DNA from: Escherichia coli O157:H7
GTDB lineage: Bacteria > Pseudomonadota > Gammaproteobacteria > Enterobacterales > Enterobacteriaceae
Assembly (NCBI RefSeq): GCF_013167455.1
Contig: NZ_CP038328.1
Length of the DNA: 64,000 bases
Reading direction: 5' to 3' (one strand)
The notes under the pieces were generated by a model, which worked only from the letters and a program-made list of their open reading frames with translations, was not told the DNA's origin and did no database searches. Position 1 is the stretch's first letter. Each line of letters starts with the position of its first letter. The position numbers and the translations under genes are program-made. Below are positions 8,868 through 29,076 of the stretch, piece by piece.

Positions 8868-11853
8868 TTATTCAAACAGGGCTTCAATATCGTTAATTAG
8901 CTCGCTGGCGGTGATGGCATCGAGTACGGAGAACTGCGCTTCCTGTGTTGAATTACTCCCCCAGCCATAGCTTTCTGCGTTGCCTTCCCATAGCCACAGC
9001 TTGCTTAAGATTTGCTCGGCACTCAGTTCGGCTGGCGACATGCCTACCGCAAAACCTTCATCGATTTCCATGATTAACGACCAGCGGCCCAGAGGTTTGA
9101 TCATCCAGCCGATCCAGCCTCCATCCTGCGGGGTGCCCTTTATCCAGCCTTTATTCGCCAGCCCCATGACCCGACCGCTCGGGCATTTTCTGCCTGCCCA
9201 GCGGGTCAGTTCGCTGGCGTTGCGCTCGGCTTCTGTCAGGGCGTAACTGTTACGGTCAAGCTGACGGAACGGTGGTAGCAGTTCATAGTCGGCAAAAAGC
9301 TGACCAAAGGCGGTAGCATCCGTCGGTGATATTTCCAGAACGTGAGGAATGCCAACAGAGATATCGCCTTCCGGCAGGGTGAAAAGATCATCGTCAGCGG
9401 TGCTGTAGCTGTTATCTTCCGCCACGCGGAAGCACGTCAGTAGCTGGTTTTCGGTGCTATAAACGCCCCAAATCAGACGGCGGGTTAAGTGGCGTACCAG
9501 TGGATGTTCAACCAGGAAGAGCTGAAAGTTTTCTGGCGACCAGCGGCGACGCAGGCACATGGCGGATTCCAACCTTGCTACCTGCTGGGCGGCGACGGTA
9601 CGCGCATCTTTTTTCAGCAGTTTGTAGCGGTTAACAGCATCGTTCGCCTGTGATTCATCATCGCTTTTGTTTGGTTTGGGCAGGTCTTTCAGACGGCTGC
9701 CAGAAACATCACGCACAAACGGTTTTAAGGTTTCATCAAAGCTGACGGTGAACTGGCGTGAGCCGAAATCCAGCAGCAACGAACCGTTATCATCCAGACC
9801 GAGATCCGGTGCTAACCGATCTTCAAGCTCTGCCACCGTGAGTTCGCGGCTTTCGGCAATGCCGGCAATTTTTTCTTTTGCCCGCTCCTGTAATGCTTTG
9901 AATTTCAGTTTCTGGGCAATACCGTTAAGCTGCATCAGGGCGATATCACTACCGATAGCGGCGAGAATATCCAACCCAACGGTGGCGCGTTTATGCTGGG
10001 ATTCACCAGGCCAGGCGCGTATTAATGGCGTCAGTTTGCGGGCGGTGTCATCGTTACCAAGAACGCCTAACGCAGTGAACGCCCAACTCTCTTTCGACGG
10101 TGCGCCCGCAGTCAGCCAGGCGGTAAACAGATCCCAGGCAAATTCAGCCAGTGAGTCGGCGGTACAGGCATCTTTCACCTGCAATAATCCCGGATACAGG
10201 GCCTCTTCCTGAGGGAAGCGGAGCATTTCACCGAGGTGCTGGAGTGCGCTATCTGGCAGTACCTTGCTGCTATTTTTGAGTTTCGGGCGAGTCCATAATG
10301 GAGGTTGATAAAACAACGGTAAAGGGGGGATTTTCGCCGGGTATTTACCCACAGGACTGTTGTCGTTATTTTTATTTTGAGTTTCCCAGGGCGGCGAGAC
10401 TAGTACCATTGGTAGAATTTCTGAGTTTGCAAAATCTTCATTGCGACTATTCAGCAATTGCTGACATTGTTGCAATAAATTTGCCGCTTGCGACGATAAT
10501 CCGATGACTAATTTTTCGACAAATAAAGGATTTGCATTAAGTAATGAAACCAGCAATGTATGTTTGCGTTTATCATCTTTTTTTACCAATGCTTCGGCTA
10601 ATGCCACTATCGTTGCAGAAGGAAAATTTTCGGCACTTTTTATTCGTAATGGCCAACGGATGATTAATACATTTCAGTACGTCACCGCAATTATCTTCTT
10701 CAGCATAGGGAGTCAGGCGAGCCAGTGCCGCTATACCTTGCTCCCGTAATACCGTAGCTGACCAACTGGCACCATAGGTGTTAAATACATCAATGTATTG
10801 ATAGTTCTCCAGTATTTCGAGCGTGAATGGATCTGTCGCTACCAGTTTCAACATTTCAAGTTGTGGAACATCTGCGACCTGGTGTAAACGATGTACGATC
10901 TCATGGGCCACTTCGGGTATTTCTGGCATTAAAATGGCAATTAACGGTTGGCGATAGAGTGATATATCTGGTAACGCAACGAGTAATTTTGCAATGCAAT
11001 TTTGCCATACTTCTTCTTCTGCTAGTGATAAATGTTTACGCAGACGTAAACTAAATTTGTCGTTATTCCTTCTATAACTGTCCTTGCTGCTATCTGCATA
11101 ATTAATAAAGAAAGTCAAATGTTCATCTTTATAGTCAAAATCGAAATCAATTTGCCACCAGAAGATGACAGTTTCAGTTGCGTATTCGATACCGAAGGTG
11201 CTTACAATTTCATCCAGCAACTCGGATGAGGTTTCATCATTCCAGCCCTGACAAAAACATATTTCCAGAAAAGTAAGTACCGCCATAGTACGCGCGGGTA
11301 TCTCAGTCTTTTGGGCCTTAATTAAGCTGATTGCCTGGCTAATCGCATCAGCCCATTCATCAGAGCATGAGCTGTAATCGAAAGTCAGATTTTTATAATA
11401 ATGATAAGTACGATTTGCCAATCGGGAAATTAAATTTTGTTTCTCGGGTTTGGTTGGTTTTTTTACTGGCTCTCCCGGCCAAAGGCGGTGGCTGAGGGCA
11501 TGGCGGGCAATATTCGGGGGAAGAATAATGGGATCGTTGTCTGCCAGCCAGGGTAAACCATTAGTTGCTGCCTGGCGATTTATTGAGGCTTTTTCCTCTG
11601 TGACCAGGACTTTCTTTGCTGAGGCATCATGTGAGTGAGCGTTAGCGTCTACTTGCTCCACATACCCCTTCTTCACCTTCTCCGCAATCAGCTTCAGTGC
11701 TGCTTTTTCCGCCGCCGCAGTATCTGCAAAGCTTTTTACCTGACTTTGCCCGTTGGTACCGACTTTACCCCAGTTAATATGCAGCTCGTTTCCCTGCTGC
11801 TCCACCGCCCAGAATTTATGTGATTTTTCGTCCTGATAAATATAGGTTTTCAT
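8868..11853 (-). pseudogene. molR/yehI-family paralog with WGR N-terminal domain, disrupted by a frameshift near 10575-10675
   Basis: Track ORFs 10573..11853 (MKTYIYQDEKSHKFWAVEQQGNELHINWGKVG...) and 8868..10607 overlap in different frames. The first frame matches yehI up to INHP, the second resumes at ENFPSAT, consistent with a single indel; the downstream piece begins at GTG, not ATG. Confidence 0.6.
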
Positions 11854-14800: not shown

Positions 14801-15675
14801 GCGATATCCGGGCGTTCAGGGAGCAGTAACGCCGCAAAAGGTTGCCGTGCGGGGGATAGCGTCGGAATGGCGGTGAGTACTTTATCTACACAGCGTTGCC
14901 ACTCATCTTCTGAAGCGAGTGAAAGATGATGACATAGACGTTGATGCTAACTAGGTAGCGATTCTGCTTCGTGATTAGGTGGAATGATGGTGGTTACTGC
15001 GCCTTTTACTGGTTTATATTTGAGTTGAAGGGCAAAAAGGACGATTTCAACGGCGCTTTCCAGACCACAGCGAATGACTAAGTCATCGACCAGTTCATCT
15101 GCAGAGTAAGAGTTCCAAAAACTCCAGAGCAATGCTGCATCAGATTGCGCACTCCCTGTCTGTTGATTATCCAGAATTCGCCTTTGTAACTCAGCAAAAG
15201 CCTGCTGCCAGTTTTCAGGATAAGAGCGGTAATTGTTGTCGGGATCATATGCCCTGGTGTTATCTGCAATACGCTTCCATATCTCACCGTCTTTGCGCAG
15301 ATAATTGATCTCTCTGGGGCGAGAGCGATGAGGAAAAGCAAATCGGTTAATATCGTCAGTTACCGGAATAACTGCATCATCAGCCAGCCACGGGCGTTGG
15401 TTTTTACTCTCAGGGGAAGTTTCAACTTCAGGAGTGGCTTTGGTGATGGGGGGGATATGCACGTTTGCTGAAGCATTTTCCACATAGCCTTTTTTCGTTT
15501 TCTCCGCGATAAGCTTCAGTTTCGCTTTTTCCGCTGCTGCAACATCCGCAAAACTTTTTATCTGGCTTTGCCCGTTAGTGCCGACTTTGCCCCAGTTGAT
15601 ATGCAGCTCGTTTCCCTGCTGCTCAACCGCCCAGAATTTATGTGATTTTTCGTCCTGATAGATAAAGTGTCTCAT
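11866..15675 (-). pseudogene. molR: molR-like giant protein (WGR domain N-terminus), interrupted by one in-frame TAG at 14947-14949
   Basis: Track ORFs 14947..15675 and 11866..14757 lie in the same minus frame; the 189 nt between them are open in that frame. 1269 codons end to end, close to the ~1264 aa I recall for intact MolR. N-terminus MRHFIYQDEKSHKFWAVEQQGNELHINWGKVG. Confidence 0.65.
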
Positions 15676-19633: not shown

Positions 19634-19924
19634 TTTGCCAACACCGTTTTAAGCATATTTAAAAAGCCAAAATCATTCCTATGAATGATTTCGGCTTTTT
19701 TATTCATCCCATAAATGTTATTTACGGTAATTTACGGTAATTAATCAGTTTCAAAAATGTTTGTTATAGCGAATTATTTGTTGTATTTATATTGCATTAG
19801 TTAATTTGTTTTAAATCAACAAAACAATATGTTTACATTGCGGCAACCTTTTTGATGTGAGAAATTTGTTTCCAAGAGATACAGACTCTTAACAAAACAA
19901 AATAAACTTATTAAGGAATGCATC

Positions 19925-23735: not shown

Positions 23736-24770
23736 ATGATGTTCAGAAATAGAATATTACTAATATTTATATTGTGGGCTAATTTTACCTGGGCTGGGTG
23801 TCGTACTACTGCATCATTAAATATTACAGATGGTATTAATGTTGGGGAGATTTTAGCGAATGAAACTTCCTTTAGTAAAAGTGTCGTGTTTACTGGGATA
23901 TCTTGTGATACGAGCACGGATAAAATAGTTTATAAAAATATCCAAAGTGATTGGGTTGAAGTTGGGCCTTTTGGTAATGGCGAAAAATTAAAGGTTAAAA
24001 TAGAGTCTTTAGGTAAAACCAGCGACACAATTGGGAAATCCAGCAATGCGCAGGCAGTATTACCTTATGTGGTTAAAATAGCCAGAGGCACACCTGATTT
24101 TACTGGAGAAAGAAAATCTACCTGGTTTATTTCAGATACCGTGATTGCAAATATTGGCGGTGAGTCATCGTCATCCATCGATTTTTGGTTGGGTATTTGT
24201 AAGGCATTGAAGTTTAACTGGTGTGTGAATTATCTCACCAGCAAACTGGCGGGGGATACATTTACGCTTGGGTTAAATATTTCCTATTATCCTAAAAATA
24301 CGACCTGTAAGCCTGAAAACACCGTTATAAAAGTAGATGATATCGCCTTGTTCCAGCTCAGAAATCAGGGAAAGATTGCGGCGAACAGTAAGGAAGGAAC
24401 AATTACGTTGAAATGTGATAATCTTTTCGGCGACAAAAAACAAGCATCGCGGAATATGGTTGTATATCTTTCTAGCAGTGACTTAGTTAAAGGAAGTAAT
24501 ACTATTTTGCGTGGTAAAACAGATAATGGTGTAGGGTTTGTGTTGGATCTAACAGAACCACCAAAAGGGACTGAGGCTGCCATTAAAATTTCGGCCAACG
24601 GCGATCAGGGCGCGGCGACATCATTATGGAAAACAGATAAACCAGGAGTTTCATTAAATAGCAACATTATTAATATACCAGTCATGGCCAGTTACTATGT
24701 ATATGATGAAAAAAAAGTTAAATCTGGCGCACTGGAAGCAACCGCATTAATCAACGTGAAATACGATTAA
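23736..24770 (+). CDS. yehA: Fimbrial adhesin-like protein YehA
   Basis: 344-aa ORF with signal peptide, last gene of the cluster. Confidence 0.8.
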   Translation: MMFRNRILLIFILWANFTWAGCRTTASLNITDGINVGEILANETSFSKSVVFTGISCDTSTDKIVYKNIQSDWVEVGPFGNGEKLKVKIESLGKTSDTIGKSSNAQAVLPYVVKIARGTPDFTGERKSTWFISDTVIANIGGESSSSIDFWLGICKALKFNWCVNYLTSKLAGDTFTLGLNISYYPKNTTCKPENTVIKVDDIALFQLRNQGKIAANSKEGTITLKCDNLFGDKKQASRNMVVYLSSSDLVKGSNTILRGKTDNGVGFVLDLTEPPKGTEAAIKISANGDQGAATSLWKTDKPGVSLNSNIINIPVMASYYVYDEKKVKSGALEATALINVKYD

Positions 24771-24826
24771 TAACAAGCAAGATGAGCAAGTGGCTAATAA
24801 TAAGAAATAATAAGGTGTCTGCATTT

Positions 24827-24853
24827 CCCCCTCTCTCCGAGGGGGCTTTTTTT
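24827..24853. terminator. Intrinsic terminator between convergent yehA and rcnB
   Basis: Stem ccccctc(24827-24833)/gaggggg(24839-24845), T-run 24847-24853, A-rich on the other side. Confidence 0.6.
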
Positions 24854-25190
24854 AGCGATGATAAAAAATCTCACCGTCGTAGGCTTTAATGATTTTACCG
24901 TCGGTGTCGCTGATCAACACGTACGCGCCACCCATATAGGTCCAGTGCGTCCCGGCATCCGGCGCGGGCAGGTTACGCAACTGCCACTGCTTAATGTTGT
25001 ACTCATCGGTACGGTACATCTCTGGTACGGTGTCCCCTGGTTTGTAATGCTTAAAGTCAGCAATGAAACTGCTTAACTCATACTTAGAAATTCCCGAGGT
25101 ATTGGTCGAACCCGCGGTGGCTGGTGCGGCCCAGGCGGCACTGGTAACCAGCAAAAGCGCACCCAGCAACATCTTATTTTTAATGGTCAT
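24852..25190 (-). CDS. rcnB: Periplasmic Ni/Co homeostasis protein RcnB
   Basis: Start MTIKNKMLLGALLLVTSAAWA (ATG 25190); 112 aa; downstream of rcnA. Confidence 0.8.
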   Translation of the reverse strand: MTIKNKMLLGALLLVTSAAWAAPATAGSTNTSGISKYELSSFIADFKHYKPGDTVPEMYRTDEYNIKQWQLRNLPAPDAGTHWTYMGGAYVLISDTDGKIIKAYDGEIFYHR

Positions 25191-25407
25191 AAACTCTCCA
25201 CTTTGGGGATCTGTAATATCAGTCGCATATCTTTCCTGCCATACAATATAACTGACAAGCGATATTTTGTTAGTGATCCCATGATTTCGTAAAAAGTGTA
25301 AATGAAAGGATGTAGCAAAAGCATCCTCATTGAGCGAGAAGTGAGCGGAATAAGCTGATTTAAGAATCATCCTGGGCTAAAAGGATAGCGAAGCCCAGGT
25401 GATTGTT

Positions 25408-26259
<852 letters not shown>

Positions 26260-26296
26260 GATAATAATTCTTAGTATTAATTCGGCAATCTGATTC

Positions 26297-26351
26297 TACT
26301 CCCCCCCAGTACCTGATACTACCCCCCAGTACCTGATACTACCCCCCAGTA
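26297..26351. promoter_or_regulatory. Three tandem RcnR operator-like boxes (TACT-N7-AGTA) at 20-bp spacing
   Basis: Boxes at 26297-26311, 26317-26331 and 26337-26351, each TACT + C-run + AGTA, separated by cctga; matches the published RcnR site TACT-G6-N-AGTA on the other strand. Confidence 0.65.
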
Positions 26352-26399
26352 GATTAATAGTGCTATGATTTTTCATGTTCTTGTTAACCAGGTGTTGCC

Positions 26400-26672
26400 A
26401 TGTCTCATACAATCCGTGATAAACAGAAACTGAAAGCGCGTGCCAGTAAGATTCAGGGCCAGGTCGTGGCGCTCAAGAAAATGCTCGACGAGCCGCACGA
26501 ATGCGCTGCAGTTTTACAACAGATTGCTGCTATCCGTGGCGCGGTAAACGGTCTGATGCGGGAAGTGATTAAAGGTCATCTAACGGAACATATCGTTCAC
26601 CAGGGGGATGAGCTAAAACGTGAAGAAGATCTGGATGTTGTTCTGAAGGTGCTGGATTCTTATATCAAATGA
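26400..26672 (+). CDS. rcnR: Ni/Co-responsive repressor RcnR (CsoR/RcnR family)
   Basis: 90-aa [24 protein letters not shown]..., divergent from rcnA. Confidence 0.9.
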
Positions 26673-26781
26673 AAGTGCCTAATATGGCCGTAGTTGAGGC
26701 AATAAATAGAGGGACAAGTGACGTTAAGCTGAATTAGAGTAAATGGCGTGAGGACACACGCCATTCGAGGTTATAGTTTGA

Positions 26782-27096
26782 TTAATTTTCGAAAAATTGC
26801 TTCACAGCCCAGCCACCATGACCACCTGGAGTTATGAATGAAACAAAACCTTTGTCATCTACGCTCTGGATTTCTACCGTCATTGATTCATCTAACACGC
26901 GACATTTATTGGATGTAATGAGACTCAGCATAGCCTGTTGGTCATTGTCCTGGATGTAACTGATCATCTCGTAAAAGTCAGTTAACTTTTTACAGTTAAA
27001 TGTACCTTCTTTAAGTGTTGCGCTGTCTCCGTGACTTAGTGCGAATGCATTTGGCATCATTGCCACAAAGATGACGGTAACGAGTAGTTTTTTCAT
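26782..27096 (-). CDS. Hypothetical small secreted protein (104 aa, signal peptide, 2 Cys)
   Basis: ATG 27096 with SD aagagg; signal peptide MKKLLVTVIFVAMMPNAFA; 9 nt downstream of the preceding ORF; in AT-rich DNA. Confidence 0.5.
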   Translation of the reverse strand: MKKLLVTVIFVAMMPNAFALSHGDSATLKEGTFNCKKLTDFYEMISYIQDNDQQAMLSLITSNKCRVLDESMTVEIQSVDDKGFVSFITPGGHGGWAVKQFFEN

Positions 27097-27105
27097 TTTA
27101 GCCTC

Positions 27106-27453
27106 TTATAATTCAGAACATTCACTGATGTTGTAAGTGCCTTTTCTACCATCATCGTTTACGAGATGTAGCACGAAGATGATGGGATTGGCATCAATGA
27201 AAGATACAGAGACGTTCCCGCTTTCGGTGCTATACATCTTTGCAATCTGTTTTTCACCAATATATGAGAGATCCCAACTCACTCCGTTCAAGCTAAAATG
27301 CATCTGTTTGCCGTCAATATCGATGGAGGATTGTGCCGTAACGGTTTTCCCATTGCTGCCAATTTGACCCTGCTGAAGAGCATCACATTTATAGGAGCTT
27401 GCATAAGTAGATAGAGGTAGTAGCAGAAGTGCAGCAAAAATTTTACTCTTCAT
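27106..27453 (-). CDS. Hypothetical small secreted protein (115 aa, signal peptide, 2 Cys)
   Basis: ATG 27453; signal peptide MKSKIFAALLLLPLSTYA; first gene of an apparent two-gene operon in AT-rich DNA. Confidence 0.5.
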   Translation of the reverse strand: MKSKIFAALLLLPLSTYASSYKCDALQQGQIGSNGKTVTAQSSIDIDGKQMHFSLNGVSWDLSYIGEKQIAKMYSTESGNVSVSFIDANPIIFVLHLVNDDGRKGTYNISECSEL

Positions 27454-28503
27454 ATTTTCCCTTTGCTTGGATTTGGGTTACCTATTTTGGGGTAGTCATT
27501 ATAAAACTATTAATTAGTAAAACGAACAAGTTTTCATTTGTTTAGCAATGGTATTGTTTAGGTTTGAAATTATTACGTATTTTCATAGCAATAGGTTGGA
27601 TAAACAGCAGTTCAGGGAACAAGTTGCACTATCTACATACTTTTCCGCTTTCCATTGCATGTTAGGTAATAGATAGCCTTTGCCCGTAAGACTAAAAATA
27701 TTAGAAATGACTCATTCGAATACCTTCTATTCACCTTAATATAGGTTTGATTATTGTAATCGTTTAATGTGTCTTATGATTTTTTCCTACTTTTCATTTG
27801 CATAATATAGGGGGCACAGCATGCTCTTGAAATTAATTATTAAAATATTTAAATTTTACAGCACACAACTACTTTTCGTTGTCTTATGTGTTGAACGTAC
27901 TTCGAGTATAGGTAGGGTTGTATATATATTGCGTGGGTAGAGTTAGAATAGAGGAAGCATCATTTATAGAATATTCAAGAACGTTAGCCTGTGATCAATA
28001 AATAAAAATATCAAATGGTGTTCAAACATATTTTTCTATGAAAAATCCAGCCATCTATGATGAATTTTTAGATCCATTTTAATTAAAGTATGATTATGAA
28101 CCAAGATTTAGCCAAGAATGGGGGTATAGCGCGTATCCAATGACACCGGAAAACGCATCTATGAAGTCCTTATTTATCTCTATAAGAGGAAATCAACACT
28201 AATAAAATGTAGTGATGTAACATATCGAGCAGGTTGCTCTGATGCTGGTCTTCAACTGTGGCTTAAACAGCTATCAAACTTCGGTGTTATTGAGATGAAA
28301 GAATTATCATTCTCAACTATCAATCTCAAAAAGCTAGAGAAAATAGACCTTAATTATTCCACTCTCTAAATTTATCTATTTATTTAAAGTAAAAATGAAA
28401 ATATTATGGTATCAGCTACGTGGTGGTAACTGGTTTTTATGATCATAGGTACATATACAGGGAACCCTGGAAAACGAAAGTAATATATTGATGATTTCGT
28501 TTG

Positions 28504-28743
28504 TTATAACTTCGTGGTATCAAGTCCGGCGGCTTTGAGTCGCTCGGTAAGATTTCTCATTTTGCTGAACTCTGTAGCAAAGCTGGCTTTAAGTCCTACA
28601 CCTTCGCAAAACTCTTTTGCCGTGACGTTTTTCAGATGGTCAGCGTATTTGATCATCTGGAGGTGCATTTCCATCGTTTGGCTATTTCGTGGTGCGCTGC
28701 TAATGGCTTGCTTAATGTTCTCGTAGATCTGGGTTTCTGTCAT
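28504..28743 (-). CDS. Hypothetical small cytoplasmic protein (79 aa)
   Basis: ATG 28743 preceded by SD aggtga (the track's 28761 start is TTG); no signal peptide; family not recognised. Confidence 0.45.
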   Translation of the reverse strand: MTETQIYENIKQAISSAPRNSQTMEMHLQMIKYADHLKNVTAKEFCEGVGLKASFATEFSKMRNLTERLKAAGLDTTKL

Positions 28744-28944
28744 TTTTATCTCACCTATCAAATTTAGATAAATAATATAAATTAGCTAATTAAGATAGTC
28801 TACAGTTTTTACCACCTGAATGATGGGTGTGAATTGTTTCTTTTTCATTACTGATATGGGGTACACAGTGAAGACGTAATGAATGGAGGCGAGCTTGCAT
28901 CTGCAAGCCTCTTCCCCTAAGCTGGCACAAAATATAGAGATTCA

Positions 28945-29076
28945 ACCAAACGACTCGGGGTGCCCTTCTGCGTGAAGGCTGAGAAATACCCGTATCACCT
29001 GATCTGGATAATGCCAGCGTAGGGAAGTCACGGACCACCAGGTCATTGCTTCTTCACGTTATGGCAGGAGCAAACT
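28945..29076 (+). promoter_or_regulatory. TPP riboswitch (THI element) in the thiM leader
   Basis: Sequence ggggtgcccttctgcgtgaaggctgagaaatacccgtatcacctgatctggataatgccagcgtagggaagtc matches the thiM TPP aptamer; expression platform runs to the thiM SD/ATG. Confidence 0.85.

Follow-up and report, generated by a model that had tools for sequence, protein, structure and literature searches.

The window analysed here is a 64-kb stretch of an Escherichia coli O157:H7 genome that carries the rcnB-rcnA-rcnR locus. Among the metal sensors of the CsoR/RcnR family, RcnR serves as the model for Ni/Co. Its gene, rcnR (26400–26672, plus strand), codes for a Ni(II)/Co(II)-responsive repressor of 90 aa and is divergent from rcnA (25408–26259, minus strand), which codes for a Ni/Co efflux pump of 283 aa; rcnB, the gene of the accessory subunit (24852–25190, minus strand; position taken from the EDL933 annotation with an offset of +999), lies 3′ of rcnA. 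Both flanking genes had been named correctly in the preliminary description of this DNA, as they match NCBIfam models well above cut-off: NF007454 for RcnA (581 bits) and the equivalog NF011613 for RcnR (197 bits, cut-off 138). The RefSeq annotation of the identical EDL933 locus agrees. The RcnR protein of the window is 100% identical to that of K-12.

Several features of the surroundings may be recorded here. Within rcnA, a 6-bp tandem repeat of 10.2 copies (25826–25886) encodes the His/Asp-rich loop of RcnA, HDHDHDHDHDHEHHHHH, and the length of the protein differs by strain (283 aa in the window, 274 in K-12, 269 in WW2, 276 in MS1657 and 281 in SY3626). On the other side of the operator, O157:H7 carries about 2.2 kb (26673–28945) inserted between rcnR and the thiM TPP riboswitch, whose distance from each other in K-12 is 92 bp. 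Three small genes lie in this insert, annotated as coding for an outer membrane protein (26782–27096, minus strand), a hypothetical protein (27106–27453, minus strand) and a protein with an HTH-like domain. In WW2, the place of thiM directly downstream of the TPP riboswitch is taken by an integrase gene. The O157:H7 rcnB-rcnA-rcnR locus (24680–26672) stands apart: over 1,909 columns it differs by 100–109 SNPs, about 5%, from all other E. coli in the comparison, and these differ by 1–54 SNPs among themselves. This suggests that the whole locus may be an old or imported allele in this lineage. Farther off in the window are two pairs of paralogous repeats in the 86–88% identity range, one between yehL and yehK (3690–4183 and 4301–4792), the other in or beside DUF4132 (yehH/yehI-like) genes (11657–11842 and 15479–15664); of the three DUF4132 genes, two carry a pseudogene annotation in EDL933.

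Between the divergent rcnA and rcnR genes, three TACT-N7-AGTA boxes occupy positions 26297–26351 at an exact 20-bp period, in the order TACTCCCCCCCAGTA-CCTGA-TACTACCCCCCAGTA-CCTGA-TACTACCCCCCAGTA. The rcnA-proximal box 1 (26297–26311), 37 bp from the rcnA start codon, is of the form TACT-C7-AGTA and has the same sequence as site 1 of K-12. A CCTGA linker (26312–26316) separates it from box 2 (26317–26331; TACT-A-C6-AGTA), identical in sequence to K-12 site 2, and a second CCTGA linker (26332–26336), found only in the three-box allele, leads to the rcnR-proximal box 3 (26337–26351; again TACT-A-C6-AGTA), which is followed by GATTAATAG, as K-12 site 2 is, and lies 48 bp from the rcnR start codon. 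Boxes 2 and 3 and the linkers are identical base for base, and the stretch from 26302 to 26351 is perfectly 20-periodic over 2.5 units. With a 7-bp spacer and an unbroken C6/G6 tract in each (C7, A-C6 and A-C6), all three boxes satisfy the type-1 CsoR/RcnR site TACT-G6-N-AGTA. The 64-kb window contains 3 matches to TACT-N7-AGTA, all in the operator, where 0.35 would be expected by chance, and three or more matches occurred in 0 of 100 shuffles of the window. Tandem Repeats Finder describes 26297–26351 as 2.8 copies of a 20-bp period with 97% matches and no indels. The strict period and the assignment of one TACT-C7-AGTA and two TACT-A-C6-AGTA boxes sharing a CCTGA linker, both noted in the preliminary description, were thus confirmed, the period also by re-checked coordinates and by this independent program.

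Genomes differ in the length of the C-tract of box 1 (26301–26307 in the window). At least 20 records of varied sources, e.g., SY3626 and XH990, have C9, which would make the box TACT-N9-AGTA; the tract is C11 in 21EVA, where rcnR is also annotated as frameshifted, and C6 in strain 8E. GB2005 has C5 in both boxes, and four ET strains share its 268-bp match length. Some of these C-tract variants may be homopolymer sequencing errors.

In the accessible portions of the literature, the K-12 rcnA-rcnR operator is described as containing two type-1 CsoR/RcnR-family sites (Iwig & Chivers 2009; Blaha et al. 2011), and E. coli RcnR as recognising two TACT-G6-N-AGTA sites with one tetramer on each, site 2 being among those bound (Iwig & Chivers 2009 via PMC7055735, PMC3902906 and PMC7105576). 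In Salmonella, tetramer and DNA were modelled at a ratio of 2:1, and a cell was reported to hold about 22 RcnR tetramers (PMC5709419). Two sites in K-12 had also been given in the preliminary description, which named an alignment showing three boxes in that strain as one way to overturn its reading. The alignment agrees with the literature: K-12 MG1655 has two boxes, not three, in the form TACTCCCCCCCAGTA-CCTGA-TACTACCCCCCAGTA, and the window operator equals that of K-12 plus one extra unit, TACTACCCCCCAGTACCTGA, made up of site 2 and a linker. The intergenic region is correspondingly 140 bp long in the window and 120 bp in K-12. The window allele is therefore a variant of the canonical two-site E. 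coli rcn operator and departs from the canonical form itself. To our knowledge, repression by tandem sites and DNA wrapping has been described for the two-site K-12 operator only, and we know of no RcnR-DNA structure.

The standing of the three-box allele within the species was surveyed with a 291-bp query including both flanks, searched against 5,426 complete E. coli genomes, in 5,363 of which the locus was matched. The great majority, 5,346 (about 99.7%), fall into a band of 90–95% identity that corresponds to a 20-bp gap and hence to two boxes; among the matches listed, those of this band, K-12 MG1655 included, span 271 bp, i.e., the query minus 20 bp. Full-length three-box alleles were found in 5 of the 5,363 genomes (about 0.09%), none of them O157. 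EDL933 and every other O157-type record, about 331 genomes with an O157-type flank, have two boxes, and Sakai is not among the three-box matches of the complete-genome survey. Among the 5,367 matches to the rcnA-rcnR region, one is borne by a plasmid and not by a chromosome; 63 of the 5,426 genomes gave no match to the region, and a few, e.g., ET979, match on the rcnA side only.

Against this background, the relationship of the window to its closest relatives is simple. From 1000 to 51000, the window differs from EDL933 (CP008957) by two SNPs (19692 and 47453) and the 20-bp insertion, and by nothing else; the SNP at 19692 is apparently private to the window. Across rcnB-rcnA-rcnR there are 0 SNPs in 1,909 aligned gap-free columns, the 4 kb downstream of rcnR are 100% identical to many O157:H7 genomes, and a 20-kb query from the window matches O157:H7 genomes over 19,981 bases. 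Relative to two-box O157:H7, the insertion can be placed in any 20-bp register within 26302–26351 (BLAST puts it at 26302–26321). Because the window matches two-box EDL933 over 50 kb apart from two SNPs and this insertion, the third box is best read as a recent, private 20-bp tandem duplication in an otherwise ordinary O157:H7 background. The window and EDL933 differ by a whole repeat unit on near-identical backgrounds, which is the signature of slippage-type copy-number polymorphism.

The normal two-box operator contains the substrate for such an event, since two copies of the 10-bp direct repeat CCCCCCAGTA lie 20 bp apart in it. One TACTACCCCCCAGTACCTGA unit would be added if the strands slipped and mispaired at these repeats, or if exchange between them were unequal, and slippage at CCCCCCAGTA is most likely the cause of the third box. 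The same process predicts two products: a gain of 20 bp, giving three boxes, and a loss of 20 bp, giving a single TACT-C7-AGTA box followed by GATTAA. Both exist. Four further genomes, EC26, N39, N47 and the O111:H8 strain 8E, have three boxes through the same 20-bp unit, and WW2 has reached three boxes by a different route, a 23-bp duplication that copies the box-1 unit and lies between CTGAT microhomologies. A synthetic one-box query retrieved the one-box allele from 9 of the 5,363 genomes (0.17%), namely 90-3040, 97-3250, 97_3250, 2013C-3492, 00_3230, 10_253, YPE10, MS1657 and VTB96929v; four of the nine (90-3040, YPE10, MS1657 and 97-3250) were verified at sequence level. In this allele, which is the reciprocal deletion product of the duplication, TACT-C7-AGTA alone is left in a 100-bp intergenic region and the divergent promoters are 20 bp closer than in K-12. 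A four-box allele was sought with a synthetic query and not found in complete E. coli genomes; the top matches were ordinary 271-bp loci split in two. A search of the literature, in a library that is itself incomplete, found no earlier report of a duplication or indel at the rcn operator.

The kinship of these alleles was followed in a SNP matrix of the 1,909 gap-free columns of rcnB-rcnA-rcnR. No other three-box allele comes within 100 SNPs of the window; three-box 8E is 1 SNP from one-box 97-3250, and three-box N39 and N47 are 8–9 SNPs from one-box MS1657. As the variants sit on unrelated backgrounds in this matrix, the pattern implies at least five independent gains (window, EC26, N39/N47, 8E and WW2) and at least four losses (90-3040, YPE10, MS1657 and the 97-3250 group). 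Operator copy number thus changes recurrently, yet each variant is always rare and has not spread: all three-box alleles are singletons or tiny clones, a distribution equally compatible with a neutral or slightly deleterious transient and with a functional role. Reversion by deletion should moreover be easier than the forward event, since the repeat of the three-box allele is longer and perfect (50 bp periodic), and this could by itself account for the rarity.

A private insertion in a single record raises the question of whether the extra 20 bp are an artefact of sequencing, cloning or assembly, for instance slippage in a library clone or during PCR, with the strain itself being two-box. This reading draws on the absence of three boxes from the approximately 331 other O157-type genomes, on the window being identical to none of the 5,426 complete RefSeq genomes and on its carrying SNPs that are missing from the best-matching O157 genomes. 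It has to contend with the size of the 55-bp repeat, which is far shorter than any read and makes assembly collapse or expansion unlikely, and with the insertion itself, which comprises exactly one whole unit and keeps the register perfectly. Alleles of this kind are, furthermore, carried by 5 independent complete genomes, and 9 have the reciprocal deletion, indicating that such changes arise in vivo. Taken together, an artefact is an unlikely explanation, and a recent duplication in the strain is the reading retained below.

Three-box rcn operators also occur natively outside E. coli. When one genome per species was scanned for sets of three TACT-N7-AGTA boxes separated by linkers of 3–8 bp, 57 loci emerged, of which 15 lie between rcnA and rcnR homologues: 13 in Enterobacteriaceae (nine Enterobacter representatives, Lelliottia nimipressuralis, Klebsiella grimontii, K. 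spallanzanii and K. indica) and 2 in Vibrionaceae. About 40 of the 57 were set aside as tandem arrays in MAGs without rcn genes nearby; long arrays of 21-bp units containing TACT-N7-AGTA were seen, for example, on contigs of Prevotellaceae, Treponema and Geomonas, with no rcn genes near and unrelated to RcnR. The Enterobacter/Lelliottia/Klebsiella operators are laid out as TACT-C7-AGTA, 6 bp, TACT-A-C6-AGTA, 6 bp and TACT-C(A/C)-G5-AGTA. All 13 Enterobacteriaceae share the same boxes 1 and 2; box 3 comes in two versions, and variation is seen in the linkers, specifically in the first. This combination amounts to a phylogenetic footprint of three functional sites. In Photobacterium halotolerans and Vibrio cincinnatiensis, linkers of 5 bp space three boxes at a 20-bp period, and RcnR and RcnA are 72–78% identical to their E. 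coli counterparts. A literature search found no publication on three-site RcnR operators or on the E. coli polymorphism, again within an incomplete library. By its geometry, the E. coli duplication recreates an arrangement that in other genera is native and, evidently, functional.

What the third box may do depends on where the promoters lie. A search of the literature for experimentally mapped rcnA and rcnR transcription start sites yielded nothing usable, and both promoters are placed here by reading the sequence, with the alignment as a further guide for rcnR. A putative extended -10 element of rcnR, TGCTATGAT, is found at 26361–26369 (plus strand) and would put box 3 over about -39 to -25; a putative -10 element of rcnA, TAGAAT, at 26293–26298 (minus strand), overlaps the outer TA of box 1. 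An AGTGCTA core lies 8 nt past the last box in the alignment of E. coli, Photobacterium and Vibrio alike. Two weak promoter candidates from a consensus scan were rejected, as transcription from them would begin at or inside coding sequences.

The region can be regarded as an operator common to the divergent rcnA and rcnR promoters, with one extra unit. Because the inserted unit is identical to the neighbouring one, the two boxes nearest to each core promoter would stay in place, and a third would be gained further upstream, at about -65 to -51 for rcnA and about -79 to -65 for rcnR, given the putative promoters. The two start sites would come to lie 20 bp, or about 1.9 helical turns, further apart. 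A third apo-RcnR tetramer would most likely bind the added box, because this box copies K-12 site 2 exactly, keeps the 5-bp spacing and meets an identical RcnR. When Ni and Co are absent, rcnAB and rcnR would be expected to be repressed as tightly as before or slightly more so; any change should be buffered by the autoregulation of RcnR through the same operator, and induction by Ni/Co should remain intact. It is plausible that the third box alters the cooperativity of Ni/Co repression, as the preliminary description proposed. The account as a whole, namely a recent slippage duplication, a bound third tetramer, equal or slightly tighter repression and intact induction, is considered probable.

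A more ambitious reading treats the three-box allele as an adaptive variant, selected for shifting the Ni/Co set-point or for making rcnAB induction more or less cooperative; the locus would then be a contingency (VNTR) switch that works at a low rate among 1, 2 and 3 operator copies. Gains and losses do recur on many backgrounds, and the conserved native three-box state of other genera suggests that such an operator is evidently workable. The frequencies speak a different language: three-box and one-box alleles make up about 0.09% and 0.17% of genomes, sit at the tips as singletons or tiny clones and are fixed in no lineage, and in metagenome contigs the E. coli-type three-box operator was found 0 times against 66 contigs with the exact two-box core. 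Nor is there an evident link to metal-rich sources, the isolates coming from urine, CSF, stool and sludge. Adaptation is accordingly judged very unlikely. It is nonetheless tempting to speculate, as quite a long shot, that the rcn operator acts as a low-rate copy-number dial, its 1-, 2- and 3-site states being interconverted by slippage at CCCCCCAGTA and each having its own basal level of RcnAB and its own Ni/Co threshold. Were this so, the three-site state would reproduce the geometry of Vibrionaceae and, with a 21-bp period, that of Enterobacter/Klebsiella, and the locus would offer a ready-made system for studying site number, helical phasing and DNA wrapping in CsoR/RcnR-family repression.

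That three boxes are ancestral and were retained in this strain as in Vibrionaceae, with two boxes as a derived deletion, might be argued from the gap-free alignment of the window boxes with native Photobacterium and Vibrio boxes and from Vibrionaceae RcnR/RcnA being closer to E. coli (72–78%) than Enterobacter's (about 60–63%), but this is effectively refuted for this strain by the lack of any SNP across the locus against two-box O157 genomes, with only 2 SNPs in 50 kb, by the base-for-base identity of boxes 2 and 3 and the linkers, and by the prevalence of two boxes, in over 99% of E. coli across all phylogroups; retention would call for hundreds of independent identical deletions. Because boxes 2 and 3 and the linkers are identical and the closest genomes are two-box, the third box of the window was in all likelihood not inherited by descent, and the likeness to native three-box operators is convergent.

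The recent duplication adds to a well-characterised two-site operator a rare three-box copy-number variant in E. coli. The variant probably matters little to the biology of O157:H7: it is private to one sequence, and RcnR autoregulation is expected to buffer its effect. Its value lies elsewhere: natural alleles with 1, 2 and 3 sites, the same spacing and the same RcnR form a clean series for examining stoichiometry, cooperativity and interference between divergent promoters, and the native three-site operators of other genera indicate that the two-site picture is not general.

Set beside the K-12 operator, the window shares the locus, the divergent genes, RcnR, the sequences of boxes 1 and 2, the CCTGA linker and both flanks, bar one lineage SNP downstream; it differs in having three sites instead of two, a core of 55 bp instead of 35 bp, an intergenic region of 140 instead of 120 bp and putative -10 elements that would be 20 bp further apart. 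The operators of Enterobacter, Lelliottia and Klebsiella likewise have three boxes between rcnA and rcnR, and their boxes 1 and 2 share the E. coli sequence, whereas their period is 21 bp (6-bp linkers), their RcnR is only about 63% identical and their rcnR-proximal box has an inverted tract (TACT-CA-G5-AGTA or TACT-CC-G5-AGTA). The closest geometrical match is with Vibrionaceae, whose operators align with the window box for box and gap-free, with the same C-tract orientation and the same distance from the last box to AGTGCTA. Their boxes and linkers, however, are mutually diverged (e.g., TACTCCTCCCTAGTA), which points to an old and inherited arrangement, while boxes 2 and 3 of the window are exact copies. 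As for copy-number variation located in a promoter, a familiar case is that of Haemophilus influenzae, where TA repeats lie between the divergent hifA and hifB promoters. In both systems slippage, on the reading preferred here, changes the number of repeats between divergent promoters and thereby alters promoter or operator geometry; the rcn unit, in contrast, is 20 bp long and present in 1 to 3 copies, its variants occur at about 0.1–0.2%, the spacing of the core -10 and -35 elements is unchanged, and the locus shows no sign of rapid reversible switching.
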